DNA of 24,000 nt, from contig NZ_CP059997.1 of assembly GCF_018736145.1 (NCBI RefSeq), positions 1,429,149 through 1,453,148 of the forward strand, written 5' to 3'. The position numbers and the translations under genes were made by a program. This DNA comes from Amycolatopsis sp. CA-230715. GTDB taxonomy: Bacteria > Actinomycetota > Actinomycetes > Mycobacteriales > Pseudonocardiaceae. The notes below the pieces were generated by a model. That model was given only the letters and a program-made list of their open reading frames with translations, ran no database searches and was not told where the DNA came from. Shown piece by piece: positions 1,843-23,884 of this stretch. Numbering within the stretch: position 1 is the first letter of the stretch; every line of letters begins with the position of its first letter.

Positions 1843-1843
1843 C

Positions 1844-2737: not shown

Positions 2738-2860
2738 GGTTCGCCTCCACGTGTAGTGGCTGGGTTTACCGAAAGCCAACACCCGCGCGGCGCTGCGGCG
2801 CCGCGGCCGAACGCCACCGGCGACGGCGACGTGCGTACCCGATCCCGGTGACCAATGCCC

Positions 2861-4684
2861 CTACTGCCACCGGCGGCGTGGATTTTCCGACGGGCACTTC
2901 CCGGCCGCGTGGTCCGGGTGCCAGGAACGCAGAGACCGCAGCAACGGGTTCTTCTTGTAGTGGTGCCCGGACATCCGGTGCAGAACGTCGGCGAGCACGG
3001 ACACCGCGTCCGCGACGAACGGACCCTTGTTGAGCATCACGCACTCCGCCCGCTCGCTCATCGCCGCGTCGGTGATCTCCGCGCGAGAGGGCTGTCCCTC
3101 CTTGGCGAGCTGTTCGAGCACCTGCGTCGCCCAGATCACCGGAAGGTGCGCCGCTTCGCACAGCCACAGGATTTCCTCCTGCAATTCCGCCATCCGCTCG
3201 TAACCGCATTCCACGGCCAAGTCGCCGCGGGCGATCATCACGCCGACCCGAGGCCATCGCATGGCGGTCAGCAACACCTGCGGCAAGTTCTGGAAGGCCC
3301 GTTTCGTCTCGATCTTGAGCACCACGCCGAGCCGCGTGGCACCGAGCCCGGTGAGCTCGTTCAGCAATCGCTCGACGTCCTCAGGACCGCGCAGGAACGA
3401 CAACCCGACCGCGTCGGCGACTTCCGAAACGACGGTGAGGTCCTCCAGGTCCTTCGCCGTCAGCGCGGACACCGGCAACCGCGTGTCCGGCAGGTTGATG
3501 CCCTTGTCGGCACCGAGCCTCGCTCTACCGGTCTTGGTCCGGACCACCCGTACCCGCAGCGAATCCCGCTGGCGGCCGACCACCACACCGCTCACTTTGC
3601 CGTCGTCGAACAGCACCTGGTCTCGGATGTGAGCATGCTCGAACACCTCGGGCAGCGTGCACCCGATCCGCGGACTCCCCGGCACGACTGGGAGCGGCGA
3701 GCAGTCCGGCACCAGTTCGAGGACGTCGCCGGGACGCAGCAGCAGGCTCTGTCGCGCGGGCGGAACCGCGCCGACGACACCGCCGGAGCCCAGAACGCAC
3801 CCGGTGGCCAGGTAGGTGGTGCGCTCGCTGCTCACCACCGCGCCGCCCTCGGCGAGCGCCACGGTCATCGTGCGGCGCCTGCCGCGCGCGTCCCGCACGG
3901 ACAGCTGCTCGCCATCCTGGCGGGCGCCGAGCCACGCCGCGGGAACGGGGATCGGCACGAGCCCCGGTTCGGGTGCCGCGACCGGGTGCTCGGCCGAGGT
4001 CAGCCAGCCGCGCGCCGGTACCCGGACATGACCGAGGGCGTCCTTCTCCGCGCGGAGCCTGACCACCCTCGGCCCCGGCTCCAACGCGCCGGTGCGCAGT
4101 TTCGGCCCCGCCAGGTCCAGCACGATCCGGCACGGCCGCCCCGCCTCGGCCGCCGCCGTGCGCACGTGCCGCGCCACCGCCCGCCACACCGCGGGATCGT
4201 CGTGCGCGCAGTTGATCCGGGCAACGTCCATGCCCTGCCGGATCAACAGGCGCACCAGACCGAGGTCTTCCGCGGCCGTGCCCGGCAGTGTGACCATGAT
4301 CCTCGCCCGGTGCGTCGGCGGCGCCGGGCCGAGCAGATCCGCCGCACGGCGCCGCAAAACCCGCGTACCGCGTCCCGCCACCGCCGGGTTCGGCGGATGC
4401 CACGCATCACCGGCGAGCGCCCTCACCGCCGCCGCGACCGTCCGCAGCGTGTCTTCCACGTGGGACTCGCTGCGCCCCAGTGACGACAGCCCGACCCCGG
4501 CCAGCCTGCCTTGCAGATCCCGGAGATCGTGCTGCCGAAGGGCCCAGTAGTGCACGAGGTTGCGCGCGCTCTCCCGCTGCCCGGCGTCTACGGACGCCAG
4601 CCACGGCGCCCACCGGGCCTCCGCGGCCGATAGCGATTCCAGCAGTCCGTCCACTTCGGCGCGCATCCGTGACAACGTGTCCAC
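2861..4684 (-). CDS. atypical pyruvate kinase-like protein: PK catalytic barrel with an N-terminal helical extension, an enlarged inserted domain and no C-terminal allosteric domain
   Basis: PK-like motifs in order: RIMVTLPG..MDVARINCAHD, VLDLAGPKLRTG, KGINLPDT..LTAKDLEDL, VVLKIETKRAF, VMIARGDLAVECG, PVIWATQVLEQL..PSRAEITDAA, AECVMLNKG. The start is uncertain: GTG 4684 (AAGGAGAGG 9 nt upstream), ATG 4666 or ATG 4732. Confidence 0.8.
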   Translation of the reverse strand: MDTLSRMRAEVDGLLESLSAAEARWAPWLASVDAGQRESARNLVHYWALRQHDLRDLQGRLAGVGLSSLGRSESHVEDTLRTVAAAVRALAGDAWHPPNPAVAGRGTRVLRRRAADLLGPAPPTHRARIMVTLPGTAAEDLGLVRLLIRQGMDVARINCAHDDPAVWRAVARHVRTAAAEAGRPCRIVLDLAGPKLRTGALEPGPRVVRLRAEKDALGHVRVPARGWLTSAEHPVAAPEPGLVPIPVPAAWLGARQDGEQLSVRDARGRRRTMTVALAEGGAVVSSERTTYLATGCVLGSGGVVGAVPPARQSLLLRPGDVLELVPDCSPLPVVPGSPRIGCTLPEVFEHAHIRDQVLFDDGKVSGVVVGRQRDSLRVRVVRTKTGRARLGADKGINLPDTRLPVSALTAKDLEDLTVVSEVADAVGLSFLRGPEDVERLLNELTGLGATRLGVVLKIETKRAFQNLPQVLLTAMRWPRVGVMIARGDLAVECGYERMAELQEEILWLCEAAHLPVIWATQVLEQLAKEGQPSRAEITDAAMSERAECVMLNKGPFVADAVSVLADVLHRMSGHHYKKNPLLRSLRSWHPDHAAGKCPSENPRRRWQ

Positions 4685-4742
4685 CTGACCGCACCTCTCC
4701 TTCCGTTCGACCGCGGAATCGCGGTGGGGCAAGCGGAAGCGC

Positions 4743-5207
4743 TCAAGTCACCCGCACACCGCTGAGCACGATCCAGATCCCGGCCTGGCCGAGCTTCGCG
4801 GGCTGCCCGAGTTGCAGGACCAGCTTGGTCCCGGTCACGGGATCGGTGACCTCGGCGGTGTGCGGATCCGCCATCGCGACCGACGGACCGGTCCAGCCGA
4901 ACCGGATTTCCACGAACGCACGGGCGACCTGCGCCGGATCGAGGCGCCACGGCTGATGACCGGCGTCCACAGTGGACTGGAGCGCCGCCACCTGTGCCGG
5001 GGTGAACTCCTCTCCGCCGAACTTGCCGGGCACCGGTGTCACGGTGGTCGTCGGCCGCGGTGCCGTGCTCTGCGAGGGCGTCGGCGCAGGGGCCTGGGCC
5101 GGATGGTCGTCCTGGCGCGCCAGTACGACGACGACCGTCATGCCCACCGCCACGACGAGCACGGCGAGCACCACCAGCCAGCGGCGCCGCGTTCCGGAGG
5201 AAGCCAT
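4743..5207 (-). CDS. membrane-anchored or secreted hypothetical protein
   Basis: 154 aa. It has an N-terminal RRRW plus hydrophobic span LVVLAVLVVAVGMTVVVVLA, a Pro/Thr-rich linker, and a C-terminal domain of about 90 aa from no family I recognise. AAGGAG lies 6 nt before the ATG. G/C third positions are strong. Confidence 0.7.
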   Translation of the reverse strand: MASSGTRRRWLVVLAVLVVAVGMTVVVVLARQDDHPAQAPAPTPSQSTAPRPTTTVTPVPGKFGGEEFTPAQVAALQSTVDAGHQPWRLDPAQVARAFVEIRFGWTGPSVAMADPHTAEVTDPVTGTKLVLQLGQPAKLGQAGIWIVLSGVRVT

Positions 5208-5226
5208 GGCGCATCTCCTTTCGAAT

Positions 5227-5257
5227 CCGGTGGCGCGCCCGCGGCATCCGCCACCGG
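5227..5257 (-). terminator. GC-rich hairpin between the DUF2267 gene and the membrane-protein gene
   Basis: CCGGTGGCG (5227-5235) pairs perfectly with CGCCACCGG (5249-5257) around a 13-nt loop. No U-tract follows on the minus strand, so it may be a processing or attenuating structure rather than a terminator. Confidence 0.3.
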
Positions 5258-5258
5258 G

Positions 5259-5885
5259 TCACCGAGAACGCGTCGAACCACCAGCGGCGAGCAGGAGGCG
5301 ATGTGCCGCTTTCGCGGCCTTCGCGACGTGTTCGTCGAGCGGCTCGTCCATCGGTGACCCCGCGATGCCCCCGGCCAGTTCCGTCACGGCCTCGTACAAG
5401 CGCGTGACACTCGCTTCCAGGTCGGCGAGGCGCGTGTCGTCCAGGTGTTCGTCGCGCACCGCGGGCTGGCCGGTGAGCTTGGCCCGCACGGAAGCGGGGA
5501 AGACCGCCAGTGCGTGGCCGAGCTGGCCAGGGGAAAACCGGTCGCCGAGCGCGGTGGTCACCGCGACCGCGACCCGGTCCACATCACCGATTTCGATGTC
5601 CGCCTCGATCGCGAACCGCCGCTGGAACTCCTCGCCGTCGAACTCGGCAGGCACCCGGTTCGGCCGCCAGCCCTCGAAGTAGAGACCACGCAGGAGGGTC
5701 GGGAGCTGAGCGGCGAGGTGCGCGGCGGAATGCACGCTCAACCGGTCGCGGACCACGTGGAGCCATGCCCGCAGCGCGCGGTAGGCGAAGTCGCGGTCCT
5801 CGGTGCCCAGTTCGGTGCGCACCTGGCCCAGCCAGTCACGAGCGGTCCGTTCTGCTTGCGCGATCGCGTCCTGTCGGTGTGGCAT
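5259..5885 (-). CDS. DUF2267-like protein
   Basis: MPHRQDAIAQAERTARDWLGQV..AYRALRAWLHVVRDRLSVHSAAHLAAQLPTLLRGLYFEGW resembles the DUF2267 helical repeat. ATG 5885 has GAGGAG 5 nt upstream. The longer track ORF (to 6038) adds an Arg/Pro-rich tail with no SD. Confidence 0.7.
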   Translation of the reverse strand: MPHRQDAIAQAERTARDWLGQVRTELGTEDRDFAYRALRAWLHVVRDRLSVHSAAHLAAQLPTLLRGLYFEGWRPNRVPAEFDGEEFQRRFAIEADIEIGDVDRVAVAVTTALGDRFSPGQLGHALAVFPASVRAKLTGQPAVRDEHLDDTRLADLEASVTRLYEAVTELAGGIAGSPMDEPLDEHVAKAAKAAHRLLLAAGGSTRSR

Positions 5886-5968
5886 GTCGTCTCCTCGCCG
5901 CCAGACTCGTTCCTGGCTCCAGGGTCGACCGCGCGCCCGGCGGCAGGAAGGGCTCTTCGGGAGCGGGG

Positions 5969-5988
5969 CCGGGGACCTTCGTCCATTC
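5969..5988. promoter_or_regulatory. DosR/DevR-box-like palindrome in the divergent promoter region
   Basis: ccgGGGACcttcGTCCattc compared with the M. tuberculosis consensus TTSGGGACTWWAGTCCCSAA. It matches 12/20 by eye with the GGGAC-N4-GTCC geometry intact. It lies between divergent starts 5885(-) and 6093(+). Confidence 0.5.
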
Positions 5989-6092
5989 ACGCCACGACCG
6001 GTGGGCCGAGACGCATCCGGTGGTTCCTTCGTCGCCACCGCGAAGGACCGAATGCCCTACCCGCCGCTACCGGAAGATCGAAGACTCGTTCC

Positions 6093-7340
6093 GTGACCAA
6101 GCGAATCGTGATACTCGGCGGCGGCACCGGCGGCACGGTGGCCGCGAACCGGCTCCGGCGGTCCCTCGGCGGCGGTGCGCACATCACCGTCGTCGACCGC
6201 GACGACGACCACGTCTACCAGCCAGGGCTCCTGTTCGTGCCGTTCGGCCTGGCGGACCCGGAGGACCTCGTACGGTCGCGGCCCCGTCAGCTGCACGACG
6301 GCATCCGCTACCACCGCAGCGACGTGGAACGGGTCGAGGTCGACAAGGAGCTGGTGCACCTCCACGACGGCGCGGTGCTGCCGTACGACGTCCTCGTGAT
6401 CGCCACCGGCGCGCGCCTGATGCCCGAAGAGACCGAAGGGCTCACCGGCGAGGGGTGGCACGAGACCGTGCACACCTTCTACGACCTCGACGGCGCGATG
6501 GCGCTGGGATCCGCGTTGACCGGGTTCACCGAGGGCAGGCTCGTGGTCAACGTGGTCGACCTGCCGATCAAATGTCCCGTGGCACCGCTGGAGTTCTGCT
6601 TCCTCGCCGACTGGTACCTCCGCGAACGCGGTGTCCGCGACGACGTCCAGCTCGTCTACGCCACACCGCTCGACGGCGCGTTCACGAAACCCGTCGCCGC
6701 CCGCACCCTTTCGGGACTGCTGACGGAAAAAGGCATCGAACTGGTGACGGAGTTCACCACCGGCGAGGTCGACGGCGCGGGTAAGCGCCTGGTTTCCTAC
6801 GACGGCCGCGAGCTCGCCTTCGACCTCGCCGTGGTGGTCCCCCCGCACGGCGGCGCGTCCTATGTGGACCGTTCGCCGGGGCTGGGCGACGAGTTCGGTT
6901 TCGTGCCCGCCGACCCGCGGACCTTGCGGGCCAAGGCGCACCCGAACGTCTTCGTCATCGGTGACGCCGCGGCGCTGCCCACGTCGAAGGCCGGTTCGGT
7001 GACCCATTTCGAGGGTGAAGTGCTCGCTCGCAACATCGTCAGCTTCCTGGGCGGGGACGAGCTGGACGGCGAATTCGACGGGCACACGAACTGCTTCATC
7101 GAAAGCGGCTTCGGCAAAGCGCTGCTCATCGACTTCAACTACGACACCGAGCCGCTTCCGGGTCACTTCCCCGCCCCGATCGGCCTGCCGCTGCTCAAGG
7201 AGTCGCGGCTCAACCACCTCGGCAAGCTGATGTTCGCCTGGTGGTACTGGCACGGTCTCCTTCCCGGACGCGACATTCCCGGTGTCTCCGCGTCGATGCC
7301 CCACAGCGGCAAGCACTTTCCCACCACCGCGGACACCTGA
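6093..7340 (+). CDS. FAD-dependent pyridine nucleotide-disulfide oxidoreductase, sulfide:quinone oxidoreductase-like
   Basis: Rossmann motif at the N-terminus (VTKRIVILGGGTGGTVAANRL). Also HVYQPGLLFVP, LPIKCPVAPLEF (SQR-type Cys context), VFVIGDAA and GHTNCFIESG. GTG 6093 is chosen because it sits directly before the GxGxxG motif. The track ORF upstream of it is antisense to the DUF2267 gene. Confidence 0.8.
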   Translation: MTKRIVILGGGTGGTVAANRLRRSLGGGAHITVVDRDDDHVYQPGLLFVPFGLADPEDLVRSRPRQLHDGIRYHRSDVERVEVDKELVHLHDGAVLPYDVLVIATGARLMPEETEGLTGEGWHETVHTFYDLDGAMALGSALTGFTEGRLVVNVVDLPIKCPVAPLEFCFLADWYLRERGVRDDVQLVYATPLDGAFTKPVAARTLSGLLTEKGIELVTEFTTGEVDGAGKRLVSYDGRELAFDLAVVVPPHGGASYVDRSPGLGDEFGFVPADPRTLRAKAHPNVFVIGDAAALPTSKAGSVTHFEGEVLARNIVSFLGGDELDGEFDGHTNCFIESGFGKALLIDFNYDTEPLPGHFPAPIGLPLLKESRLNHLGKLMFAWWYWHGLLPGRDIPGVSASMPHSGKHFPTTADT

Positions 7341-7360
7341 GCCACGAGGAGGAACATCCC

Positions 7361-7678
7361 ATGTCGACCGCTACCTACGCGGGTACCGAAGTCACCGTCA
7401 ACGAAGAAGGCTTCTTCACCGATCCCGCCGCCTGGACCGAGGCGATGGCACCGGAAATCGCCGACGAGGCCGGTATCGCCGAACTCACCGACCAGCACTG
7501 GCAGGTCATCAGGCACGTTCGCCACGAATATACGGAAAAGGGCTCAGGGCCGACCGTTCGGGCATTGGGAAAAACCTCCGGCGTCGGAGTGAAACAGCTC
7601 TACGAACTGTTCCCGAAAGGCCCGGCGAAGCTGGCGGCGAAGATCGCCGGTATCCCGAAGCCACGCGGCTGCATCTGA
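7361..7678 (+). CDS. TusE/DsrC/DsvC-family sulfur relay protein (single C-terminal Cys)
   Basis: The C-terminus [26 protein letters not shown] closely matches the E. coli TusE tail as I remember it ([26 protein letters not shown]). GAGGAGGAA lies upstream of ATG 7361. Confidence 0.9.
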   Translation: [105 protein letters not shown]

Positions 7679-7699
7679 GCCGGAAAAGGAGAAGACATC

Positions 7700-8158
7700 G
7701 TGATCGAAAAAGTTTCCATCATCATCTCGAAAGGTTCGCTGGAAGCCGTCTACCCCGGGCTCATCATGGCCAACGGCGCACGAGCCGAAGGGATCGAGGC
7801 CAACCTGTTCTTCACCTTCTTCGGCCTGGACGCCGTCCACCGAAAGCACCACGACCACATCAGGCTGGCCACCGTCGGCAATCCCGGCCTCCACCTCCCG
7901 ACCCTGGCCGGCGCCCTGCCCGGCGTTTCCGCGGCGATGACGGCCTACCTGGCCAAGAAGATGGCGAAGCTGGATATCCCGCCCATCCCGGAGTTCATCG
8001 AAATGATCTCCGATACCGGCGCCGGGCTCTACGCGTGCAAGGCCTCGGTCGACCTGTTCGAGCTGGCCAAGGACGACCTGATCGAGCAGGTGCAGGACAT
8101 CATCACGGTCGGCGAGTTCTACGACAAGGCGGACGGCGGCCAGATCGTCTTCACCTGA
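7700..8158 (+). CDS. DsrE/DsrF-like family protein (COG2210-type)
   Basis: 152 aa. Motifs KVSIIISKGSLE, ANLFFTFFGLD and GAGLYACKASVDLF (conserved Cys context). GTG start with AAAGGAGAAG upstream. Confidence 0.8.
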   Translation: MIEKVSIIISKGSLEAVYPGLIMANGARAEGIEANLFFTFFGLDAVHRKHHDHIRLATVGNPGLHLPTLAGALPGVSAAMTAYLAKKMAKLDIPPIPEFIEMISDTGAGLYACKASVDLFELAKDDLIEQVQDIITVGEFYDKADGGQIVFT

Positions 8159-8169
8159 AAGCCGCGAAT

Positions 8170-8208
8170 CCCCGTGCCCGGCCTCGTGCGACGAGGCCAG
8201 GCACGGGG
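8170..8208. terminator. bidirectional intrinsic-terminator-like hairpin between convergent genes
   Basis: CCCCGTGCCCGGCCTCGT (8170-8187) pairs with ACGAGGCCAGGCACGGGG (8191-8208) across a 3-nt loop, 17 of 18 bp. It lies between the stop codons at 8158(+) and 8221(-). Confidence 0.7.
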
Positions 8209-8220
8209 ATCTTCCGTGTG

Positions 8221-9018
8221 TCAGGCAGGCGGGGCGATCAGGCCGTAGTGCCCGTCGTAGCGCCGGTAGAGGACGCTCCCCCGCTCGTTCTCGGTGTCGA
8301 CGAAAAACACGAACGGCATCTCCGACATCGTCAACCGCGTGATGGCCTCGGTGACCGGCAACCGGACAGCGGGGTGCTCGCTCACCGTCAGCGATACCCC
8401 GGTCTGAGGGATTTCCTCGGGTACCGGCCGGACCTGCGCCAGCCGGTAGCCGTCCGGGGTGCGGTACAGCACGCTGTCCTGGCCCGTGGTGTTTTCGACG
8501 AACAGGTGGAAGGCGTAGTCCATCGAGTCCATCTCGTCCGCGGCCTCGTCGACCGAGCACGCGGCAAGCGTGAAAGCCTTGTGCCGCACGATTTGGCACT
8601 CCTCTTCCGGTCTGGGGAAGAAGGCCGGCCGAGCCGATCGCTCGGACCCGTGGCGCCACGAGCCAGGATGCGGCCATCGGCCCCGCCTGGCTTCCCACCG
8701 GGTCGACGACTTCGCCAATCGCGTGCGCAGCCGTTCGCACAACTCGTCCACCGCGCCGGCCACCGTGGCCGCGGCGGCCTGCGCGCGCACGGCCCGGCCG
8801 CGCAGCCGTACGTTCGCCTGGGCCACCACGCGGCGCTCGCGCGTCGGGTCTCGCTGCTCGGTCACTCGCACGCGCGCGTCGAGCACGGGCTTCGGCGCAT
8901 GGCCGAGGCTCTCCATGACGCGGTCACGGGCGTGCTCCCCGGCGCCGGGGAGGGTGCCTCGTACGGTCACCCGCACGTCGGTTTCTGTGTTGATCGTCGT
9001 CTCTCGCACATCGACCAC
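8221..9018 (-). CDS. long hibernation-promoting-factor-like protein (Rv0079/DATIN-like: S30AE domain plus C-terminal dimerisation domain)
   Basis: The C-terminal MDYAFHLFVENTTGQDSVLYR...MPFVFFVD..GSVLYRRYDGHYGLIAP parallels the Rv0079 and long-HPF C-domains. The N-terminal DVRVTVRGTLPGAGEHARDRVMESL is S30AE-like. The start is uncertain: GTG 9018, GTG 9009 or ATG 9132. The last would overlap the kinase gene by 46 nt. Confidence 0.75.
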   Translation of the reverse strand: MVDVRETTINTETDVRVTVRGTLPGAGEHARDRVMESLGHAPKPVLDARVRVTEQRDPTRERRVVAQANVRLRGRAVRAQAAAATVAGAVDELCERLRTRLAKSSTRWEARRGRWPHPGSWRHGSERSARPAFFPRPEEECQIVRHKAFTLAACSVDEAADEMDSMDYAFHLFVENTTGQDSVLYRTPDGYRLAQVRPVPEEIPQTGVSLTVSEHPAVRLPVTEAITRLTMSEMPFVFFVDTENERGSVLYRRYDGHYGLIAPPA

Positions 9019-9043
9019 GATGTCCGCCCGGTCCCCGTGCCGG

Positions 9044-9063
9044 CTGGGGTCCAAAGACCCGTC
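9044..9063. promoter_or_regulatory. DosR-box-geometry palindrome just upstream of the HPF-like gene
   Basis: ctgGGGTCcaaaGACCCgtc has 5-bp inverted arms with a 4-nt spacer and matches the DosR consensus 14/20 by eye, with A/T swapped at positions 7 and 14. It sits in the 68-nt gap between the kinase stop (9087) and the GTG 9018/9009 starts. Confidence 0.4.
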
Positions 9064-9086
9064 TTCGGCGGAATTGGTCTGCTCGC

Positions 9087-9878
9087 TCAGTCCGTCGCGG
9101 GGACGTGGGGTTGCGGGAGGGGAACTCGCCATTCGAGCCGGGTTCCGGCTCCGGGCTCGCTGGTGATGGAAAAGCCGCCATCGTGGATCTGAGCCCGCTC
9201 GCGCATGTTGCGCAGGCCGCTGGAGCGCGTGGTGGTGCCGAGGCCCCGCCCGTTGTCGCTGACGCGGAGGACCAGTTCGTCGCCGACCGCGAGACTGAGC
9301 TCGGCCTTGGTGGCGTGGGCGTGACGGGCGAGATTGGACAGCGCCTCACGGGTGACGGCCAGCAGGTCGGCGGCGATGTGGTCCGGCACCGCGGCGTCGA
9401 TGGGGCCCGCGAAGCTGACGGTGGGGCTGAAACCGAGGTTGTCGTCGGCTTCGGCGATCAGGTCCGCGAGCTGGATGCGCAAGCTCACCGCTTCTTGTGG
9501 GTGGTCGTGGAGGCCGAAGATCGCGGTGCGCAGGTCCCGGACCGTGGCGTCGAGTTCGCCGATCACCGTCCGCACCCGCTCGGCCGCGCGCGGGTTCCGG
9601 ATCAGTGCCGCGCTGCCCTGCAGGATCAGGCCCGCGCTGAAGACGCGTTGGATGACCTGGTCGTGCAGATCGCGCGCGATCCGGTCGCGTTCGGCCAGTA
9701 CCGCGTTTCTCGCCCACGCCCGCGCTTCGGCGTCACGTGCGGCTTCGAGTTCGGTGTGCAACGCGATGATGCCGCGGTTGGTGGTGTCGAGTTCCTCGGT
9801 GAGGTCGGCGATGCGCTGGTGCGCGGCAGCGAGCTCCGCCCGCGTACTCGACGGCTCGTGGTCTTCCGGTTCGCTCAT
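9087..9878 (-). CDS. soluble HisKA_3-type histidine kinase with no recognisable sensor domain (short N-terminal coiled coil only)
   Basis: H-box ERDRIARDLHDQVIQRVFSAGL, N-box REALSNLARHAHA, G1 SDNGRGL and G2 GLRNMRERA..GG. About 50 residues of helical sequence precede the H-box, with no TM, PAS or GAF. ATG 9878 overlaps the upstream stop (ATGA). Confidence 0.85.
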   Translation of the reverse strand: MSEPEDHEPSSTRAELAAAHQRIADLTEELDTTNRGIIALHTELEAARDAEARAWARNAVLAERDRIARDLHDQVIQRVFSAGLILQGSAALIRNPRAAERVRTVIGELDATVRDLRTAIFGLHDHPQEAVSLRIQLADLIAEADDNLGFSPTVSFAGPIDAAVPDHIAADLLAVTREALSNLARHAHATKAELSLAVGDELVLRVSDNGRGLGTTTRSSGLRNMRERAQIHDGGFSITSEPGAGTRLEWRVPLPQPHVPATD

Positions 9879-10885
9879 CGGTCGCCCCCTGCCGTGGCTT
9901 CGCCGGTGTCCTTGACGACGAGCACCGCGGCGTCGTCGTTGCCCCTGGCGTGATCGCGGTGCACCACGGCGGCGATCACAGCCGGGTCGTGGCGCAGCAG
10001 ACCGGGCCAGCGGGCCGGATCCCATCGCGTGTCGATGCCGTCGGAGGTCAGCACCGCGGTGGACCCCGCTGGCCAGGTGCGGATGGCCGGGTGCGGCCGG
10101 GGCGGCCGCAGGGAAGTGCCGAGCGTCCCATGCTGGCCGAGCACCTGATGGTGGTCCGAACCGGTGAGGACCCGGCAGGTGATGTTGCCGACCCCGACGA
10201 AGGAGAGTCTGCTTTCGCCCGGCTCGATCCAGCAGAGTCCGAGGACGCCGCCGCGGGTGCCCCGCATCGCTTCGTGGGCGCGCCGGGGAAAGTCGGTGAG
10301 CCAGTTGTCCGCAGCCCGCTGCCGTTCGAACGCTTCGACCGCCGCACCGGCCGCCGCGGCGGCTTCCGGTCCATGGCCGAGGCCGTCGACCACCAGCGCC
10401 GCCACATCCGATTCGACAGCGGCGACGGCCCAAGCGTCCCCGCTGGCACCGGCACCGCCGAGCGGGACGGTGACCCCGCCCCACCGCCACCGCCCGGCGC
10501 CCGACTCCGCGGCCCGGATGCGGACGAGGACGACCGTCCCGGACCGCGTGGAGTAGGTGTCGAAGACCGACGCGCGGCGCCGGACACCGGCCAGACCCAC
10601 CCCGAGCCCGCCCGCCCTCGGCGGGCCCGGTTCGTCCGGCATACCGGGGCCGTGGTCCACCGCGAGCAGTTCGAGCCCGCCGCCGGTCGGCCGGGTGAGC
10701 ACGTACCCGCCGGCGGTGTGCCGAAGGATGTTCGTGGCGAGTTCCGTCGCGACAAGTTCGGCATCCCCGTCGGGCAGGCCGGGCAGCGTGCTCGCTTCGG
10801 CGGCCATCGCCCGGCGGAGCACGCCGACGTCTTCGACGACGCGGACCGGGTACCGCCGGTGCGTCGTGCTCATCACCGCGCCCAT
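9875..10885 (-). CDS. fusion of an RsbW/RsbT-like HATPase domain with a PP2C/SpoIIE-type phosphatase (RsbX position of a stressosome operon)
   Basis: N-terminal half: ELATNILRH, VDHGPGMP, GGLGVGLAGV. C-terminal half: SGDAWAV..ALVVDGLGHGPEAA, VLTSDGI, GNDDAAVLVV, which are PP2C metal-ligand contexts. Start is ATG 10885, GTG 10876 or ATG 10873; the last two overlap the RsbT-like stop. Confidence 0.85.
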   Translation of the reverse strand: MGAVMSTTHRRYPVRVVEDVGVLRRAMAAEASTLPGLPDGDAELVATELATNILRHTAGGYVLTRPTGGGLELLAVDHGPGMPDEPGPPRAGGLGVGLAGVRRRASVFDTYSTRSGTVVLVRIRAAESGAGRWRWGGVTVPLGGAGASGDAWAVAAVESDVAALVVDGLGHGPEAAAAAGAAVEAFERQRAADNWLTDFPRRAHEAMRGTRGGVLGLCWIEPGESRLSFVGVGNITCRVLTGSDHHQVLGQHGTLGTSLRPPRPHPAIRTWPAGSTAVLTSDGIDTRWDPARWPGLLRHDPAVIAAVVHRDHARGNDDAAVLVVKDTGEATAGGDR

Positions 10886-11295
10886 TTGGTGATCGTGACC
10901 GTGGTCCCCGATTCTCCGGTGACGATCGTCAGCTCGTCGACGAGCCGTTTGGAGCCCGGCAGACCCAGCCCGAGGCTGCCGCTGGTGGAGTAGCCGTCGG
11001 TCAGCGCCGCTTCCACGTCCGCGATACCGGGGCCGTCGTCGGTGAACACCGCCCGCACCCCGCGGCGCCCCGGCTCGCGCACCTGCTCGACCCGCAGCAC
11101 ACCGCGCGCACCGGTGGCGTAGGTCAGGATGTTGCGGGTCAGCTCGCTGCCCGCGGTGATCAGCTTCGTCGAATCGACGAGGCCGAGCCCCGCCTCCTCG
11201 GCGTGCGCGCGCAACGACTGGCGCACCCGGATGAGATCGGCTTCGGTGGCGATCGCCACCGAAGCCCGACCGGTCTCAGTCAGCTCCGTAGCCAT
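10873..11295 (-). CDS. rsbT: RsbT-like serine/threonine kinase (anti-sigma regulatory factor family)
   Basis: About 140 aa. Motifs ITAGSELTRNILTYA, FTDDGPGI and GLGLGLPGSKRLVDEL. It sits directly after the RsbS-like gene with a 20-nt overlap (or 35 nt if ATG 11310 is used). Confidence 0.85.
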   Translation of the reverse strand: MATELTETGRASVAIATEADLIRVRQSLRAHAEEAGLGLVDSTKLITAGSELTRNILTYATGARGVLRVEQVREPGRRGVRAVFTDDGPGIADVEAALTDGYSTSGSLGLGLPGSKRLVDELTIVTGESGTTVTITKWAR

Positions 11296-11671
11296 CGCCA
11301 CGCACCGCATCGTCGCGAAGCCGCCGCAGCAGGGCCAGCCCCTGCTCCGCGTTCAGCGCCGTGTCCAGGTGCCCCATCGGGATACCCAGTTCGACCAGGG
11401 TGATCGCCACAGCGGGGGCGATCCCCACGATCGCCGCCTGCGCACCGAGCAACCGGATCATGCCCACCACCCTGGCCAGCACCCTGGCGATGAACGAATC
11501 GACCACCGTCAGCCCGCTCACGTCGATCAGCACGCCCGCCGCCTGGGTGCGCGCCACCTCCTCGGTCAGGTGCTGCTCGATGCGCACCACCGTGGCGTCG
11601 TCCAGATCGCCCTGCAAGGTGACGAGCAGGGTGTCACCGATCTGCAGGATCGGCACCGCCACCTCGCTCAC
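11276..11671 (-). CDS. rsbS: RsbS-like single-STAS protein
   Basis: VSEVAVPILQIGDTLLVTLQGDLDD...GVLIDVSGLTVVDSFIARVL..GIAPAVAITLVELGI aligns by eye along its whole length with B. subtilis RsbS, including the DSF serine. The GTG start forms a GTGA overlap with the RsbR-like stop (11668-11671). Confidence 0.85.
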   Translation of the reverse strand: MSEVAVPILQIGDTLLVTLQGDLDDATVVRIEQHLTEEVARTQAAGVLIDVSGLTVVDSFIARVLARVVGMIRLLGAQAAIVGIAPAVAITLVELGIPMGHLDTALNAEQGLALLRRLRDDAVRGDGYGAD

Positions 11672-12879
11672 GCCCGGCCACCGGTCACGTTCCTGGCGAT
11701 TTCGTCCGCTTCGCCCGCCCTTTCCCGCAGGATCCGCAAGGCGAGCTGGAGCGCGTCCCGCAGCGTGTTCCGGCTGCGCAGCCGCCCGAGGTCGATACCG
11801 AGGTGCACGATCGCTTGCGCGGTCTCCGGTCGGACACCGCTCACGATGCTCACCGCCCCCATCAAATTGGCCGCCTGCACGGTTTTGAGCAGGTGCTGGG
11901 CGACCAGAGTGTCCACTGTGGGCACACCGCTGATATCGAGGATGACGACTTCGGCCCGCAGCTCGGCGATGTTCTCGAGCAGGCTTTCGGTCAACCGCAT
12001 CGCCCGCCCGGAATCCAGGGTGCCGATGATCGGCAACGCGATCACCTTGTCCCACACCTGGATCACCGGTGTGGACAGCTCCATGATCTCGTCCCGCTGC
12101 TGCCGCAGCCGCGCTTCCTGTTCGCGGCGTTCGGTGACATCCCGGATCGCGGCGCACACCTGCGGCCCCTGATCGGTTTCCAGCGGGCTCAGGCTGATTT
12201 CGACCGGGAACTCGGTGCCATCGCGGCGCACGCCGAGCAGGTCGAGGCCCACGCCCATCGGACGCACCGCGGGCGCGGCGAGAAACCCGTCGCGGTGGCG
12301 GACGTGGCGCTGGTGCAGCCGTTGCGGGACGAGGATTTCGATCGGCTGGCCGACCAGTTCGTCGCGCGGGAACCCGAACAACCGCTCCGCCTGCCGGTTG
12401 ACCAGCGTGATCCGCCCGTCCGGCCCCGCGATCACCATCGCGTCCGGCGCGGATTCCAGCAGGGCCCGGAACATCGACTCGTCCGAGCGCCGTTCCGTCA
12501 CGTCCCTGGTCAGCGTGGCGAAACCGGTCACGGCGCCGTCGTCGTCCAGGATCGGCGCCGCGACCACGTTGGCCCGGAACCGGCCGCCGTCCTTGCGCAC
12601 GCGCCAGCCCTCGACCTCGACCCGGCCGCCCGCGGTGGCGGCGTCCAGGTCCTGCCGGTCACGACCGGCGGCGCGGTCTTCTTCCGTGTACAGCACGGAC
12701 ACCGACCGGCCCCGGATCTCCTCGGCCGCGTACCCCGTCAGTGCTTCGGCGCCGGAACCCCAGTCGACGACGGTCCCGGAAGCGTCCAGCCGGATGAGTC
12801 CGTCCCCGGCGAGCATCGCCACCGCTTCGAGCTCCCGCACGCGCGACCCTGGATCGGATCTCGCCGACGCCCCGTCCAT
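11668..12879 (-). CDS. rsbR: RsbR-like stressosome sensor: PAS-PAS-STAS
   Basis: Two PAS domains, each ending in DVTERR. The C-terminal STAS reads ELSTPVIQVWDKVIALPIIGTLDSGRA...VILDISGVPTVDTLVAQHL, matching the RsbR C-domain. ATG 12879 has GGGAGG 5 nt upstream. The track GTG at 12900 would contain that SD. Confidence 0.85.
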   Translation of the reverse strand: MDGASARSDPGSRVRELEAVAMLAGDGLIRLDASGTVVDWGSGAEALTGYAAEEIRGRSVSVLYTEEDRAAGRDRQDLDAATAGGRVEVEGWRVRKDGGRFRANVVAAPILDDDGAVTGFATLTRDVTERRSDESMFRALLESAPDAMVIAGPDGRITLVNRQAERLFGFPRDELVGQPIEILVPQRLHQRHVRHRDGFLAAPAVRPMGVGLDLLGVRRDGTEFPVEISLSPLETDQGPQVCAAIRDVTERREQEARLRQQRDEIMELSTPVIQVWDKVIALPIIGTLDSGRAMRLTESLLENIAELRAEVVILDISGVPTVDTLVAQHLLKTVQAANLMGAVSIVSGVRPETAQAIVHLGIDLGRLRSRNTLRDALQLALRILRERAGEADEIARNVTGGRA

Positions 12880-12964
12880 GCAGACCTCCCGATCCGGCAC
12901 GCCCTTCCGCGTGGCGCCCCGAATGCTATCGGCCGAAGCTCCGCCCGCACACCCGCCGGCCGGT

Positions 12965-13915
12965 CTACCTCCAGTCCTCGCGGTAGTCAGCGGTGGACGG
13001 GATGCGCAAGGGCGCCGCGGCGGGCGCCACGGGATACCCGACGCGCAGGATCAGCTGGGGAAAACCGGCCAGTCCGAGCTGGTCGACGAGGTCGGAGCGC
13101 ACCTCGGGCAGTTTCAGCGGCTGGGTCAGCACTGACGCCGCGAGGCCCCGTGCGACGGCGGTCAGCCAGACGCGCTGCATCGCGGCTCCGGCCCGCACCT
13201 GGTCCCGCCTGGTGTCGTCGCCGGTCACCAGTACCAGCAATCCTTCACGCGCCAGCCGCTCTGCCAGCGTGACGGTGTCCGGGAGGTGCGTGCTGGAGCG
13301 CACCAGACCCGCCCACGGCAGGCTGGCCCTGGCAGCACCCGGCTCCGGGACCGACGGCATCCACGCGGCCAGTTCCCGTTGGTAGGCGCGGTCTTCCCTC
13401 AGCACGGCGCCGGCGTGGGCGAGCAGCTCCGCCAGCCCGGTCGATTCGCGACGGGGATCGATCACCCGAGCCCACGTTCCGCCATCGCGGGCGATCTCGG
13501 TCAGCAAGCGCAACTCGTGCGCGGAAACTCGGTCGAGACGGAACGGAGCCCGGTGGCTGCGACGGCGGAAGAGCGCCGTGTAGCGCTCGTCCTCGACGGC
13601 GGTGGTGTCCTGACGAGTGGACGTTTCCAGCCTGGCCACCAAGTTCGGCCGTCGGTCGTCGGGGAACACCGACACCGCGGCATCCCGGCCGAGTGCTCGC
13701 ACGGCGAGATGGAGGTTGGCCACCGCTGCACCGCAGGAAATCATCCGGTCGCGTCCCGCGGGGTCGTGCCGCGGCAAGGCGGCGGTGGTCCGTTCGTGGA
13801 GTTCGGCCGTGCCCGTATCGGTTTCCAGCACCCAGGGCTGGGTGTTGTGCACCGACGGCGCGTGGCTGATGGCTCGCGCCAGGATGCCGATCTCGATCGC
13901 CGACCACTCGATCAT
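12965..13915 (-). CDS. Acg-family (Rv2032/Rv3131-like) FMN-binding nitroreductase-fold protein
   Basis: 316 aa. Motifs [11 protein letters not shown] near the N-terminus, [21 protein letters not shown], and a C-terminal second nitroreductase-like half (QRVWLTA...LILRVGYP). Confidence 0.85.
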
Positions 13916-14065
13916 GGCGTCTCCTGCTCCTGGTCGCGCTGACGACCCTCTCCGCGAATGGCTTGTCCTGCGGTGCTTCCAGCGTCGTTTGCCAGGTCCG
14001 GGCCGGACAGAGCCGCCCGCCCTCGACCCGAGGGCCGAAGTGCCTTCCGGGTGGAGCCCCTCGGC

Positions 14066-14136
14066 GAGATGACCTTGGTCCCTTCGGCAGGGGACCTTCG
14101 CCGTGCCGGAACTCGCCCGGAGTCTTTAGCCTGGAA
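14066..14136. promoter_or_regulatory. cluster of three DosR-box-like sites in the acg-like/dosR divergent region
   Basis: Site 14066-14085 is gagatGACcttgGTCCCttc. Site 14088-14107 is cagGGGACcttcGccgtgcc. Site 14117-14136 is ccGGaGtCTTTAGcCtgGAA. By eye they match TTSGGGACTWWAGTCCCSAA at 11, 11 and 13 of 20 positions. The last lies about 40 nt before the dosR GTG. Confidence 0.45.
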
Positions 14137-14175
14137 CACGGCAAGCTGGCAGCGTCTGAGAGAGGCAGTGTCTTC

Positions 14176-14823
14176 GTGATCAAGGTGTTCCTGGTCGACG
14201 ACCACGAGATCGTCCGGCGCGGAGTGGCCGAGCTGCTGGAGTCCGATCCCGAGCTGTCGGTGATCGGCGAAGCGGGATCGGTGGGGCACGCGCTGGCCCG
14301 GATCCCGGCGCTGCGACCGGACATCGCCGTGCTCGACGTCCGGTTGCCCGACGGCAACGGCATCGAGCTGTGCCGCGAGCTGCGGTCCAAACTGCCCGAG
14401 CTGAACTGCCTAATGCTGACCACGTTCACCGACGAACAGGCCATGCTCGACGCGATCCTCGCCGGCGCCGGTGGTTACGTGATCAAGGACATCCAGGGCA
14501 TGCGGCTGGTGGCCGCGGTCCGCGAGGTCGCGTCCGGCAAGTCACTGCTGGACAACCGGGCGGCCGCGACGCTGATGGCCAAGCTCAGGGCAGGCATCGA
14601 AGCGAACACCGGGCCGACATCCGGGTTAAGCGAGCAGGAGCGCACCCTGCTCGACCTGATCGGCGAAGGCTTGACCAACCGGCAGATCGCGGCGCGGATG
14701 TACCTCGCGGAGAAGACGGTCAAGAACTACGTCTCGCGGCTGCTCACCAAGCTCGGCATGGAACGCCGCACCCAGGCCGCCGTACTGGCCACCGAGTTGC
14801 GCGGCAAGCGTTCCGAGCACTGA
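14176..14823 (+). CDS. dosR: DosR/DevR-type NarL-family response regulator
   Basis: [36 protein letters not shown]...[20 protein letters not shown]...[16 protein letters not shown]...[16 protein letters not shown]...[53 protein letters not shown] is near-colinear with M. tuberculosis DosR (Rv3133c) as I remember it. GTG 14176 matches the MVKVFLVDD start of DosR. Confidence 0.9.
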
Positions 14824-14875
14824 CACGATGCTGTCGCACTGACCGCCGCGACTTCCGGGTGCCCGTGGCCGTCCA

Positions 14876-14895
14876 GTAGGGACGTTGGTCCCCAC
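14876..14895. promoter_or_regulatory. DosR-box-like palindrome upstream of ldh
   Basis: gtaGGGACgttgGTCCCcac has both GGGAC and GTCCC arms intact with a 4-nt spacer, 15/20 to consensus by eye. It is the best box in the window, about 115 nt upstream of ATG 15010. Confidence 0.65.
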
Positions 14896-15009
14896 CGGTG
14901 TGCGGAAGACTCGGCGGATCAACGTCCACAAAGGACGATCGTGCGGCGTTCGACCGGTCTCTCGTCGAAGCCGGGTGGACGGTCGGCCACCCCGGCGAGG
15001 AGAAACCAC

Positions 15010-15984
15010 ATGGTCCAGTTGTTCCCGGCGCATTCGGCGCCCCGCAACACCAAGGTCGCGATCGTCGGGGCGGGCGCGGTCGGCGCCACCATCGCCTACG
15101 CGTGCCAGATCCACGGCGTGGCGCACACGATCGCGCTCTACGACACCAACGCCACGAAAGTGCGCGCGCAGGCGCTGGATCTGGCCCACGGCAGCATGTT
15201 CACGCCCACGACCGAGGTCGTGGGCAGTGCCGACGTCGGTGTCTGCGCCGACGCCGACGTCGTGGTGATCACCGCGGGCGCCAAGCAGAAACCCGGCCAG
15301 GACCGGATGGCACTCGCCGGGGACAACGTCGCACTGTGCCGTGACCTCGTGCCGCGGCTGCTGGCGGTGGCACCGGAGGCGATCCTGGTCCCGGTCACCA
15401 ATCCGGTCGACGTGGTCACCCGGGCGGTGCTCACCTTCAGCGGGCTGCCCGCGCGGCGGGTCGTCGGCTCCGGCACCGTGCTGGACTCCTCGCGGCTCCG
15501 GATGCTGATCTCCGAGCACTCCGGCGTCGGCACGCCGAGCGTGCGCGCCTACATCGCGGGCGAGCACGGGGACAGTGCCGTCCCGCTGTGGTCCGGCGCG
15601 TTCCTCGGCTCGGTCCCGATCTCGGACTGGAAGACCGATGGCGCGCCGGGTTTCCCCGACGAGATACGAACCGCCATCAAGCACGCGGTGACCAACGCCG
15701 CGTACGAAGTGATCGCGGGCAAGGGCGCCACCAGCTACGCCATCGGCCTCGCCGTCGCCTACGTCCTGGACACGATCCTCGGCGACCAGCGCCTCATCCT
15801 GCCCGTCACCAGCCTCGTCGAGGACTTCCACGGCATCACGAACGTGTGCCTGTCCCTGCCCCGCCTGCTGGACCGTTCCGGCGCGGGTGCCGTGGTGCCC
15901 TTACCGCTGGCACCGGACGAACTCGACCAGCTCCGGGCGTCCGCGGAAAAGATCCGTGCCCTGTGCCACGAGTTCGGCCTGTGA
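15010..15984 (+). CDS. ldh: L-lactate dehydrogenase
   Basis: KVAIVGAGAVGATIAYA (NAD Rossmann), VVITAGAKQKPGQDR, PVTNPVDV, VVGSGTVLDSSRLR and YIAGEHGDS (catalytic His context). ATG 15010 has GAGGAG upstream. The track start at 14941 adds an Arg/Ser-rich tail. Confidence 0.9.
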   Translation: MVQLFPAHSAPRNTKVAIVGAGAVGATIAYACQIHGVAHTIALYDTNATKVRAQALDLAHGSMFTPTTEVVGSADVGVCADADVVVITAGAKQKPGQDRMALAGDNVALCRDLVPRLLAVAPEAILVPVTNPVDVVTRAVLTFSGLPARRVVGSGTVLDSSRLRMLISEHSGVGTPSVRAYIAGEHGDSAVPLWSGAFLGSVPISDWKTDGAPGFPDEIRTAIKHAVTNAAYEVIAGKGATSYAIGLAVAYVLDTILGDQRLILPVTSLVEDFHGITNVCLSLPRLLDRSGAGAVVPLPLAPDELDQLRASAEKIRALCHEFGL

Positions 15985-16004
15985 GACACGACCGGGAGGC
16001 GACG

Positions 16005-16241
16005 ATGACCGGGAACCGGGACCACGGGGCGGACAGGATCCGCGCGACCGCGGTGGTCGAGCGCTACGCGCGAGACCCCGCCGAGTTGGCGGAGCTGCTG
16101 GACATGCTGGGCCTCCTGAGCCGGCCAGAGGACCGCGCACCGGCACCCGCGCGCGGCGGGCCAGGGCGGCGGTTGCTGATCAGCGAGCTGGCCGCGATGG
16201 TCTCCGCACAGCGCCCACCGGCCGCGGCACCCCACTGTTGA
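16005..16241 (+). CDS. small hypothetical protein (78 aa) coupled to ldh
   Basis: ATG 16005 lies 20 nt after the ldh stop, with GGGAGG 6 nt upstream. Third positions are strongly G/C. I recognise no family. Confidence 0.5.
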   Translation: MTGNRDHGADRIRATAVVERYARDPAELAELLDMLGLLSRPEDRAPAPARGGPGRRLLISELAAMVSAQRPPAAAPHC

Positions 16242-16351
16242 CCTCTCCGCGACCGCGCTCGGGATCACCCGGATCTGCGCCCGACCGCTGCGAGCAGGGG
16301 GCATCGGGCGTGATCGGTGAACGCCACGGGCGAGGGCTGCTGATGCGCGGG

Positions 16352-17317
16352 TCAGGCGCGTTTCGTCGTGACCTGGTCCGCGGTGCGGCGGCCCGTCATC
16401 GGGACCGGGTAGCCGTAGCCGATCCTCAGCAGCGTCTGCACCTGGCCGCGATCTTTGAACAGCTTGAACAGCTCAGGACGGGTGTCAGCGGTCTCGAACG
16501 GCTGGGACAGGAACGAGCTGGCGAGGCCAGCGGCCGTGGCCGCCAGCAGGACGCGTTGCATGACCATGCCCGCGTGGACCTGGTCCCGCGGCCCGGAGCC
16601 CGGCGCGAGCACCGCGGCGAGCAGCGGCTGTTGCTCGTACGAACGCCCTGGCAGGTCGTGGTTGGCGTGGGAGTCGCGCAGGACGATCAAACCGTCCTGC
16701 AACGGTGGTGGCGCGGCGGAAGTGGTGGGCACGCCGTCCGGGCACCCCGCCGGGCGCCTCGTCCAGCTCGCCGACTCGGTGCGATAGGCGATGTCGTTGC
16801 TCTGCACGAATTCCGCGCGCCGGATCAGGGCGACGATGCGGTCGTACTGCCCTGACGCGTCAATGAAGACCAGCGCTCCGCCTTGGGTGAGTGCCGCTGT
16901 CTCGAGCCGACGCCGCACCCCTGGCGGCACCGGCCGGTCCGAGAACGGGCGCCGATTGGTGTGCCTCCTCGCGATCGCGTCGGCAAGCGCGCGTTCGTCC
17001 GAAGTGGACTTGTGGTTGCCCGTGACGCGTGCGGTGGCGAGCAGATCCGGGTGCGCCGGGTCCGGGAGCGTCCGGACGTCGGCGAAGACACCGGCATTGC
17101 GCAGGGCCAGGTCGAGGTTGAGCATCGCGGCACCGCACGCGAGCCGCGCCTCCCACGCGTCGGGATCCGCCACGGGCAGCACCCGGCTCCGGTCGAGCCA
17201 CAGGTCGACGCGCTCGTCCCCTGCCTCGAACCGCCACGGTTGCGTATTGTGCGGCGACGGCGCGAGGATCGCGGATTCCACCGCCCGGTCCAGAACGGCC
17301 GGAAGTGCTCGGTTCAT
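16352..17317 (-). CDS. Acg-family nitroreductase-fold protein, second copy
   Basis: 321 aa. Motifs APSPHNTQPWRF, LACGAAMLNLDLA, RRHTNRRPF and QRVLLAA..LLRIGYGYP. It has the same architecture as 12965-13915. Confidence 0.85.
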   Translation of the reverse strand: MNRALPAVLDRAVESAILAPSPHNTQPWRFEAGDERVDLWLDRSRVLPVADPDAWEARLACGAAMLNLDLALRNAGVFADVRTLPDPAHPDLLATARVTGNHKSTSDERALADAIARRHTNRRPFSDRPVPPGVRRRLETAALTQGGALVFIDASGQYDRIVALIRRAEFVQSNDIAYRTESASWTRRPAGCPDGVPTTSAAPPPLQDGLIVLRDSHANHDLPGRSYEQQPLLAAVLAPGSGPRDQVHAGMVMQRVLLAATAAGLASSFLSQPFETADTRPELFKLFKDRGQVQTLLRIGYGYPVPMTGRRTADQVTTKRA

Positions 17318-21102: not shown

Positions 21103-21120
21103 GGTCGCTCCTCCATCGGG

Positions 21121-23760: not shown

Positions 23761-23884
23761 GGATTTCCCTTTCGGCGAACGGTGAACGCGCTTCGGCCTC
23801 TGCTCCCAGCACACCCCGCGAGCCACCGGTGAAGCTGTGGCCGGACTGCCCGAACCGCGAGGACCTACGTCACCAGCCACCGGG

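Follow-up and report, generated by a model that had tools for sequence, protein, structure and literature searches.

Since the genome comparisons of Pane-Farre et al. 2005 (cited in PMC10014275) it has been known that some stressosome modules of the RsbRST(X) type have a two-component output, and the stressosome of Vibrio vulnificus, VvRsbRSTX with VvD1/VvD2, has an output of this kind (PMC9237108, PMC10014275). Most of the kinases encoded behind RSTX modules are without an RsbU_N domain, the mechanism that couples them to the module being unexplained, and phosphorylation of the kinase by RsbT has been raised as speculation only (Heinz et al. 2022). Here we describe a stretch of 24,000 nucleotides of Amycolatopsis sp. 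CA-230715 (contig NZ_CP059997.1, positions 1,429,149 to 1,453,148; the whole stretch is called the window below, and coordinates are positions in it unless a contig is named), in which a five-gene stressosome-like operon ends in a small histidine kinase gene (9087-9878, minus strand) and lies near the gene for a DosR/DevR-type response regulator, DosR1 (14176-14823, plus strand). The locus is a variant of the known theme of RsbRST(X) plus two-component output, with a PAS-less orphan kinase and, as the candidate for the coupling element, a conserved helix on that kinase. An initial annotation had seen here a DosR without a DosS and had made this kinase its partner, but this was not right, as the same strain carries a dosS gene after a second dosR gene, dosR2. 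Because a canonical DosR-DosS pair is present elsewhere in the strain, the kinase can be at most an extra input to DosR and not its missing partner. Our proposal as a whole, in which dosR1 is a spare copy and the stressosome-module kinase is a second input to DosR beside DosS, is one that we favour slightly.

The operon consists, in order, of genes for a PAS-PAS-STAS RsbR, RsbS, RsbT, a HATPase-PP2C protein and the kinase, which is the last gene and whose ATG overlaps the TGA stop of the PP2C gene (ATGA). All five are on the minus strand and were identified with Pfam as an RsbR-like scaffold or sensor of 410 aa with FixL-like PAS-A, PAS-B and STAS domains (11668-12900), an RsbS-like single STAS protein of 133 aa (11276-11677; STAS 3.3e-15, with a VVDSF serine motif in the sequence), an RsbT-like GHKL serine kinase of 145 aa (10873-11310; HATPase_c_2 1e-10), a phosphatase of 336 aa in the RsbX position with an N-terminal HATPase-like region before its SpoIIE/PP2C domain (9875-10885; SpoIIE 3.6e-10) and an orphan histidine kinase of 263 aa with HisKA_3 and HATPase_c and no sensor domain (9087-9878). 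The RsbR-type STAS, single-STAS RsbS, RsbT GHKL and PP2C genes are in the order that marks stressosome modules. Residues 19-124 of the phosphatase gave HATPase_c and HATPase_c_2 matches just below cut-off, and the same two-domain HATPase-PP2C gene stands at the phosphatase position in all of the modules. These five genes, their order unchanged and their ends overlapping or near-touching, were found in all ten contexts sampled, the window included; five others have a short kinase (L081, the P0006 contig, L082, L167 and L168/169) and four a PAS-type kinase (L083/84 from Streptomyces sp. NBC_01451, L085 from Planomonospora, L087, and L170 from Actinopolymorpha), with only the PP2C-kinase end of the operon being visible in L087 and L167. 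Identity across the modules is 51-79% for RsbR, 73-85% for RsbS, 64-76% for RsbT, 46-60% for PP2C and 49-70% for the kinase. That the sensory input of the kinase is supplied in trans by the stressosome-like proteins, as first suggested in the initial annotation, is well supported by the conservation of this operon in ten contexts together with the helix motif described below, and judging from both we consider signalling from the module to the kinase to be quite probable.

The STAS domain of RsbR matched best the structures from V. vulnificus (7o0i_B, 5e-31) and of B. subtilis RsbR (6qcm and 7b0u, about 6e-29), and RsbR carries a GVPTVDT threonine motif with Ala at the second phospho-site position, these positions being numbered by what we take to be the B. 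subtilis sites. The PAS-PAS half (about residues 30-270) matched FixL (8js5) at 1.4e-21, and PAS-B aligned without gaps to the BjFixL heme domain (about 2e-20) with the position of the heme-ligand His200 kept. This proximal-His position is conserved in six homologues (the window RsbR and those of five other modules), and the Actinopolymorpha homologue (L170) is without PAS-B. On these alignments, the chances of the PAS-B domain binding heme or not appear to us to be evenly balanced.

The kinase is the sole histidine kinase of the window, as had been annotated, since Pfam found no other histidine kinase, and no response regulator besides DosR1, in the 24 kb. Its sequence is identical to that of an NCBI protein of Amycolatopsis sp. 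CA-230715. Its HisKA_3 domain begins at about residue 63 of 263 with HATPase_c next, and alignment showed that the phospho-accepting His72 (9663-9665) is present and that the H, N and G1 boxes are intact, the H-box reading ERDRIARDLHDQVIQRVFSAGL as had already been quoted. Pfam detected no PAS, GAF-A or GAF-B domain in the kinase, there was no transmembrane segment in it (maximum 19-residue hydropathy 1.45), and RsbU_N was found by Pfam neither on the kinase nor on the ten motif-bearing relatives scanned. In the AlphaFold2 model (whole-model mean predicted local distance difference test score, pLDDT, of 88) residues 10-92 are one continuous helix (block-mean pLDDT 85-97) which joins the N-terminal motif to the His72 helix, residues 1-63 being modelled as a single helix. 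The earlier description of a short helical stretch alone before the H-box, with no GAF, PAS or transmembrane segment, thus stands.

The relatives closest to the kinase number about 25, are as short as it is, come mostly from metagenomes and are 55-70% identical to it; the next are PAS-HisKA_3 kinases of roughly 385 aa (53-62% identity) from Streptomyces, Planomonospora, Actinomadura, Frankia and others; no GAF kinase was present among the best 120 matches. Alignment of the relatives revealed a family-specific N-terminal helix (residues 19-56; 9711-9824, minus strand) with the motif LTEELDTTNRGIIALHTELEAAR, in which T, R, G, A, L, E and L do not vary and which includes the invariant Thr33. Its consensus over both the short and the PAS-type kinases is L(T/N)xEL(D/E)xTNRG(I/L)(I/V)ALHxELExAR, and we refer to it as the ETNRG helix. 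The distance from motif to H-box is a fixed 153 residues in the PAS type, where the motif lies ahead of the PAS domain, compared to 31 in the short type, from which it follows that the latter has cleanly lost the PAS domain. The motif was absent from the DosS-size kinases at 80 genome loci. An exact 8-mer scan of genome contigs with the kinase found mostly DosS-size kinases (41-52% identity) and no module kinases, and it provides a comparison set and not evidence on synteny. The initial annotation had described a DosS-like core stripped of its sensor domains, but by the helix motif, the distances and the tree of catalytic cores (neighbour-joining, 50 bootstraps) this is a PAS-less module kinase, and the idea of a DosS minus its GAF domains was rejected as the kinase shares the module-kinase helix. 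The short kinases did not form one group in this tree (0/50 bootstraps), and therefore either PAS loss was repeated or the tree does not resolve them; a single PAS loss behind all short kinases was rejected on the same result.

The motif was also found outside this family. A word-indexed search with a 49-residue motif profile gave nine short fragments only and an exhaustive HMMER search was used instead, which found 762 proteins among 1.84 billion representative proteins. Many of these are HisKA hybrid kinases of 540-730 aa with the motif directly before the phospho-acceptor domain, one of which (P0168) lies behind STAS, RsbT and HATPase-PP2C genes. At about 55 metagenome loci RsbR-RsbS-RsbT-(HATPase)PP2C genes are directly followed by a motif-bearing kinase, usually with the architecture HATPase_c_2-motif-HisKA-HATPase-REC-REC and often with a REC-HisKA_3 kinase next. 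Pfam does not cover an ETNRG-type helix motif, and no relevant paper turned up when full texts were searched for its string. Judged by this distribution, the ETNRG helix is a signature of kinases encoded behind RsbRST-PP2C modules, in two kinase families, and its occurrence on both HisKA_3 and HisKA kinases behind such modules therefore supports sensing supplied in trans. The motif, which over the window, L086 and L109-L166 has the form EL(D/E)ETNRG(V/I)(V/I)AL(Y/H)xEL, is at times tandemly duplicated with an 18-residue period. At L111, L118 and about 20 other metagenome loci the gene after that of the hybrid kinase encodes a REC-HisKA_3-HATPase protein, and in many cases a separate HisKA_3 kinase and a NarL-type regulator come next, an arrangement that points to a phosphorelay also ending on NarL-type regulators.

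Searching with DosR1 as the query identified a second regulator, DosR2, in the same strain and on the same 10.36-Mb replicon (P0277, with P0278 being a longer start), which is 91% identical to DosR1 locally and 89% over the full length. The contig carrying dosR2 and dosS (L171) was taken from the Logan assembly of run SRR12367306, and a further Logan contig from the same run (L172) is 100% identical to 13838-16679 of the window (2842 bp). In L171, dosR2 is followed after 100 nt by the gene for a 557-aa GAF-GAF-HisKA_3-HATPase kinase, DosS, whose GAF-A matches DosT (2vzw, E 2.5e-70) and DevS (2w3d, E 3e-62), whose GAF-B matches 2vjw (E 2e-22) and whose ATP-binding domain matches DevS (E 1.7e-35). 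The absence of a DosS/DosT-type GAF kinase claimed in the initial annotation is thus true of the window only, the strain having dosR2 and a GAF-GAF-HisKA_3 DosS/DosT orthologue; that annotation had itself called for a search for a GAF-containing homologue elsewhere, whose presence would speak against it, and one is indeed present beyond the window.

The two loci are paralogous at both ends. Over the promoter boxes and dosR, L171 9895-10631 and window 14069-14806 are 82% identical in nucleotides, the paralogy with the dosR2 locus beginning right at the promoter boxes upstream of dosR1, and L171 12936-13250 corresponds to window 16365-16679 at 83% (the 3' part of acg; the window copy, acg2, encodes an Acg-family FMN oxidoreductase at 16352-17317, minus strand, NCBIfam NF047509, 302 bits against a cut-off of 199). 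Between these paralogous ends L171 has dosS and a small open reading frame (orf142) and the window has ldh, and no dosS remnant was found between the paralogous segments of the window when L171 and the window were compared. The arrangements dosR1-ldh-acg2 and dosR2-dosS-orf142-acg are therefore paralogous with the middle cassette swapped, ldh for dosS. dosR1 would then be a spare copy originating in a duplication of the canonical dosR2-dosS-acg locus, ldh having taken the place of dosS. As the promoter boxes are shared and receiver helix 1 of the two regulators differs only by I12V and E19D, DosS should serve both, and so the DosS encoded elsewhere is expected to phosphorylate DosR1 as well as DosR2.

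DosR1 itself (215 aa; Pfam Response_reg and GerE) matched M. tuberculosis DevR/DosR (PDB 3c3w) with an E-value of 2.6e-96, residues 1-212 aligning with 1-211 in end-to-end colinearity and 152/212 (72%) being identical, which agrees with the near colinearity first noted, and the second-best structure match, VraR, reached only 4.7e-35. In the 3c3w alignment the context of Asp54 (VLDVRLPDG) and the DNA-contact helix are identical to those of DevR, the contact residues of this helix being those that we take to be such from the DosR-DNA structure. The next gene downstream of dosR1 is, as had been reported, that for an L-lactate dehydrogenase, ldh, instead of dosS (15010-15984 within the open reading frame 14941-15984, plus strand; Pfam Ldh_1_N and Ldh_1_C; the start at 15010 is the gene call on the identical contig L172). 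No kinase gene adjoins dosR1, and the module kinase lies 4.3 kb off.

DosR is a plausible target of the module kinase because DosS-type kinases have an almost identical histidine-bearing helix. The post-histidine helix reads HDQVIQRVFSAGLILQG, and the consensus of DosS-size kinases adjoining DosR-type regulators, HDQVIQRLFA.GL.LQG, is almost the same, upholding the earlier remark that the H-box is close to that of DosS/DosT; other HisKA_3 kinases have HDEAGQLLTSLLVGL at this helix, unlike the kinase. The best solved structures for the ATP-binding domain are DevS/DosT (3zxo 7.5e-20, 3zxq 4e-17), and the kinase thus combines a DevS-type H-box (RDRIARDLHD-x-VIQRLF) with a DevS-like ATP-binding domain, its identity to the strain's own DosS being 41% over 194 aa. 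Genes of DosR-regulon type (Acg, universal stress protein (USP), pyruvate:ferredoxin oxidoreductase (PFOR), CBS-BON and GNAT-acyl-CoA synthetase) surround the module in at least four of its ten contexts. From these resemblances we name DosR as the target tentatively, putting it somewhat below an even chance.

The mechanism that we propose is as follows. The FixL-like and plausibly heme-binding RsbR would, together with RsbS, hold the RsbT kinase, and upon a signal, oxygen or redox state being our best guess at it, the ETNRG helix would be acted on by RsbT, by the HATPase-PP2C protein or by the two together. This helix is modelled as running into the His72 helix, and acting there would switch the dimeric kinase on, with the PP2C phosphatase resetting the system. 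The kinase would pass its phosphate to a NarL-family regulator, DosR1 and DosR2 being the best candidates, and in this way the DosR regulon would receive, in addition to that from DosS, a second input from the stressosome module.

Three other explanations have to be weighed against this proposal. That the kinase is the cognate and only DosR kinase, in an organism without DosS/DosT in which the stressosome replaces heme-GAF sensing, would agree with its DevS-like histidine-bearing helix and ATP-binding domain and with a dosR1 that is 4.3 kb away and has no adjoining kinase, but it is largely refuted by the canonical GAF-GAF DosS/DosT orthologue right after a dosR2 that is about 90% identical to dosR1, on a contig from the same sequencing run that yielded the 2842 bp identical to the window, and by the two receiver helices, which differ at two residues only; we now regard it as very improbable. 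More serious is the explanation in which the kinase serves another NarL-family regulator encoded elsewhere, DosS alone serving DosR1 and dosR1 being nearby through clustering of stress genes. All ten contexts have the kinase as an orphan, and only one has dosR nearby; in the other nine the flanks that could be seen contained no response regulator, and therefore the adjacency to dosR is unique to the window and may be coincidental. Module kinases were separated from DosS-size kinases in 38/50 bootstraps, the core identity of the kinase to the latter is only 41-53%, and there are systematic differences between the two groups at His+7 (V/I against L) and at His+9/+10. Set against this are the post-histidine residues, which are near-identical to those of the DosS type and unlike those of other HisKA_3 kinases when insulated paralogues usually differ more, the four or more contexts with DosR-regulon-type genes, and the DosR-like boxes which are found upstream of rsbR in two of the module contexts (L081 and L083). 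On balance we think service to another regulator somewhat unlikely.

It might also be that the fifth protein is mainly a binding partner or substrate in a partner-switching circuit, for instance sequestering RsbT or PP2C, and that its kinase activity is dispensable. About 7 of the 26 aligned short relatives (P0014, P0015, P0019, P0026, P0061, P0065 and P0101; L168 4969-5760) have Gln for the phospho-accepting His, as DLQD or DMQD, along with degenerate ATP-binding N and G1 boxes, and these apparent pseudokinases keep the N-terminal motif and in one case (P0019) also an intact operon; the fifth protein of some family members therefore cannot donate phosphate, which counts against our proposal. 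The window protein and most of its relatives, however, retain His72 and the N and G1 boxes, and the bearers of the motif in the wider family are complete hybrid kinases with receiver-domain proteins next, so that we see this explanation as very unlikely. Two further points tell against our proposal in its details: the FixL residues Arg206 and Arg220, which function in oxygen signalling, are Gly and Leu in the window RsbR, and RsbT, the HATPase-PP2C protein or both are candidates for the module protein that contacts the kinase, none being singled out. Our proposal in its most complete form, with a heme-PAS stressosome which senses oxygen or redox and drives the DosR regulon via a minimal kinase, and with the ETNRG helix as an RsbT docking or Thr33 phosphorylation element that couples RsbRST-PP2C to two kinase families across phyla, is unlikely to hold in every part.

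The surroundings of these genes were mapped by third-position GC framing and Pfam (the G+C content of the window is 70%), and form a dormancy-type island with two copies of Acg, a USP, a hibernation factor, L-lactate dehydrogenase, PFOR and AckA. PFOR subunits (21-1842, minus strand, Pfam) are followed in order by a DeoC aldolase, a pyruvate-kinase-barrel protein, DUF2267, a pyridine-nucleotide disulfide oxidoreductase, DsrC and DsrE, and after these comes the minus-strand run of acg1, the five operon genes and a hibernation-factor-like gene. acg1, the first gene of this run, encodes an Acg-family FMN oxidoreductase (12965-13915, minus strand; NCBIfam NF047509, 232.6 bits against a cut-off of 199) and lies 64 nt upstream of rsbR, and the start of the hibernation-factor-like gene overlaps the 3' end of the kinase gene by 46 nt. 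The product of the latter gene (8221-9132, minus strand) is long, at 303 aa, with S30AE and two S30AE_C stretches by Pfam; no NCBIfam model matched it, and we presume that it resembles the DosR-regulated RafH of mycobacteria. On the plus strand after this run are dosR1 and ldh, then acg2 on the minus strand, and distal to acg2 are genes for a beta-CASP nuclease, a USP, acetate kinase, and a GNAT plus ADP-forming acyl-CoA synthetase. The PFOR, pyruvate-kinase barrel, L-lactate dehydrogenase, acetate kinase, ADP-forming acyl-CoA synthetase and DsrC/DsrE/oxidoreductase trio of the island (mostly at 21-8158 and 20002-24000) look like a fermentative and sulfur-relay kit for low-oxygen survival.

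DosR-type boxes were scored against the M. tuberculosis DosR consensus. A perfect palindrome, GGGACGTTGGTCCC, lies at 14876-14895 between the dosR1 stop and the ldh start, and this site ahead of ldh (GGGACNNNNGTCCC) is the sole zero-mismatch box in the window and has the top score against that consensus. The promoter element upstream of dosR1 (14066-14107), which is conserved in the dosR2 promoter, is made up of a DosR-like box in the acg1-dosR1 spacer, ATGACCTTGGTCCC (12/14 match, 10/14 at specified positions), and a half box, GGGACCTTCGCC, 22 bp from it. The initial annotation had spoken of a box-rich divergent promoter, but DosR-type boxes were not enriched in the window (27 observed compared to 37 expected from shuffled sequence at two mismatches) and the spacer has this weak pair only. 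Positive feedback of DosR onto acg and the stressosome operon, as suggested there, is a weak idea since a 12/14 box and a half box are all that the spacer contains, the box without mismatches precedes ldh and there is no enrichment. Co-transcription of acg1 through the stressosome operon from a DosR-dependent promoter is possible. The 64-nt gap between acg1 and rsbR has no terminator-like site; a promoter and terminator scan of 8000-15000 found no site, by which an operon is neither defined nor broken. A weaker DosR-like box was seen at 5969-5988, in the divergent region between DUF2267 and the oxidoreductase, and two more, 28 bp apart, start at 23857 and 23885 (span 23857-23904) near what is probably the 5' end of the GNAT/acyl-CoA synthetase-ackA operon. 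Upstream of the Planomonospora module (L085 6147-6215) an unannotated open reading frame contains a 12-bp unit, GTCCGGACATCG, repeated in tandem five times or more, and matches to this repeat as DosR boxes were discarded as false.

These results correct the tempting reading of an organism which runs DosR without DosS, and offer the ETNRG helix as a concrete and mutable target for studying how stressosome modules signal to kinases that have no RsbU_N. Were our proposal true in its most complete form, actinobacteria would gain a second, stressosome-based hypoxia input to DosR, and the question of how RSTX modules reach kinases without RsbU_N would have an answer. It is a possibility that DosR-type regulons of soil actinobacteria combine heme-GAF sensing by DosS with a stressosome sensor which is perhaps also heme-based.

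Like the known RsbRST(X) modules with two-component output, and that of V. vulnificus in particular, the locus has RsbR, RsbS, RsbT and PP2C genes and then a histidine kinase, with no sigma factor or RsbU, and its RsbR has a STAS domain closest to that of V. vulnificus RsbR and a sensor part that may well be a heme-based gas sensor. It differs from the V. vulnificus system in that this sensor is a FixL-like PAS-A/PAS-B pair and not a globin, in the extra N-terminal HATPase-like domain of the phosphatase, in a small HisKA_3 kinase with a DevS-like core and the ETNRG helix only (no RsbU_N or PAS), and in having no partner regulator in the operon, an actinobacterial host and a DosR-type island around it. 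With DevS/DosS, DosT and the OsdK kinase of Streptomyces coelicolor (PMC5069765) it shares the H-box signature RDRIARDLHD-x-VIQR-(L/V)-F, a DevS-like ATP-binding domain and the nearby genes for a DosR-type regulator, Acg, USP and hibernation factor, but the window kinase has neither GAF-A, GAF-B nor a heme site, groups separately from those kinases with 41-53% core identity and is not adjacent to its presumed regulator, and a genuine DosS orthologue is encoded elsewhere in the strain. Similarly, RsbT-RsbU_N control (B. subtilis RsbU, Moorella MtG and RsbU_N kinases; PMC12143880) acts through a helical N-terminal extension leading into a dimeric effector, and by analogy the helical extension of the kinase could be the site of action for an RsbT-type partner, although it is a single helix with another conserved motif in place of the RsbU_N four-helix bundle. 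FixL, finally, is matched by the N-terminal half of RsbR in PAS-A and in the heme PAS-B, without gaps over the heme domain and with the His200 position kept, but its two signalling arginines are not conserved, and the output of the window RsbR is a STAS domain in a stressosome scaffold and not a fused kinase.

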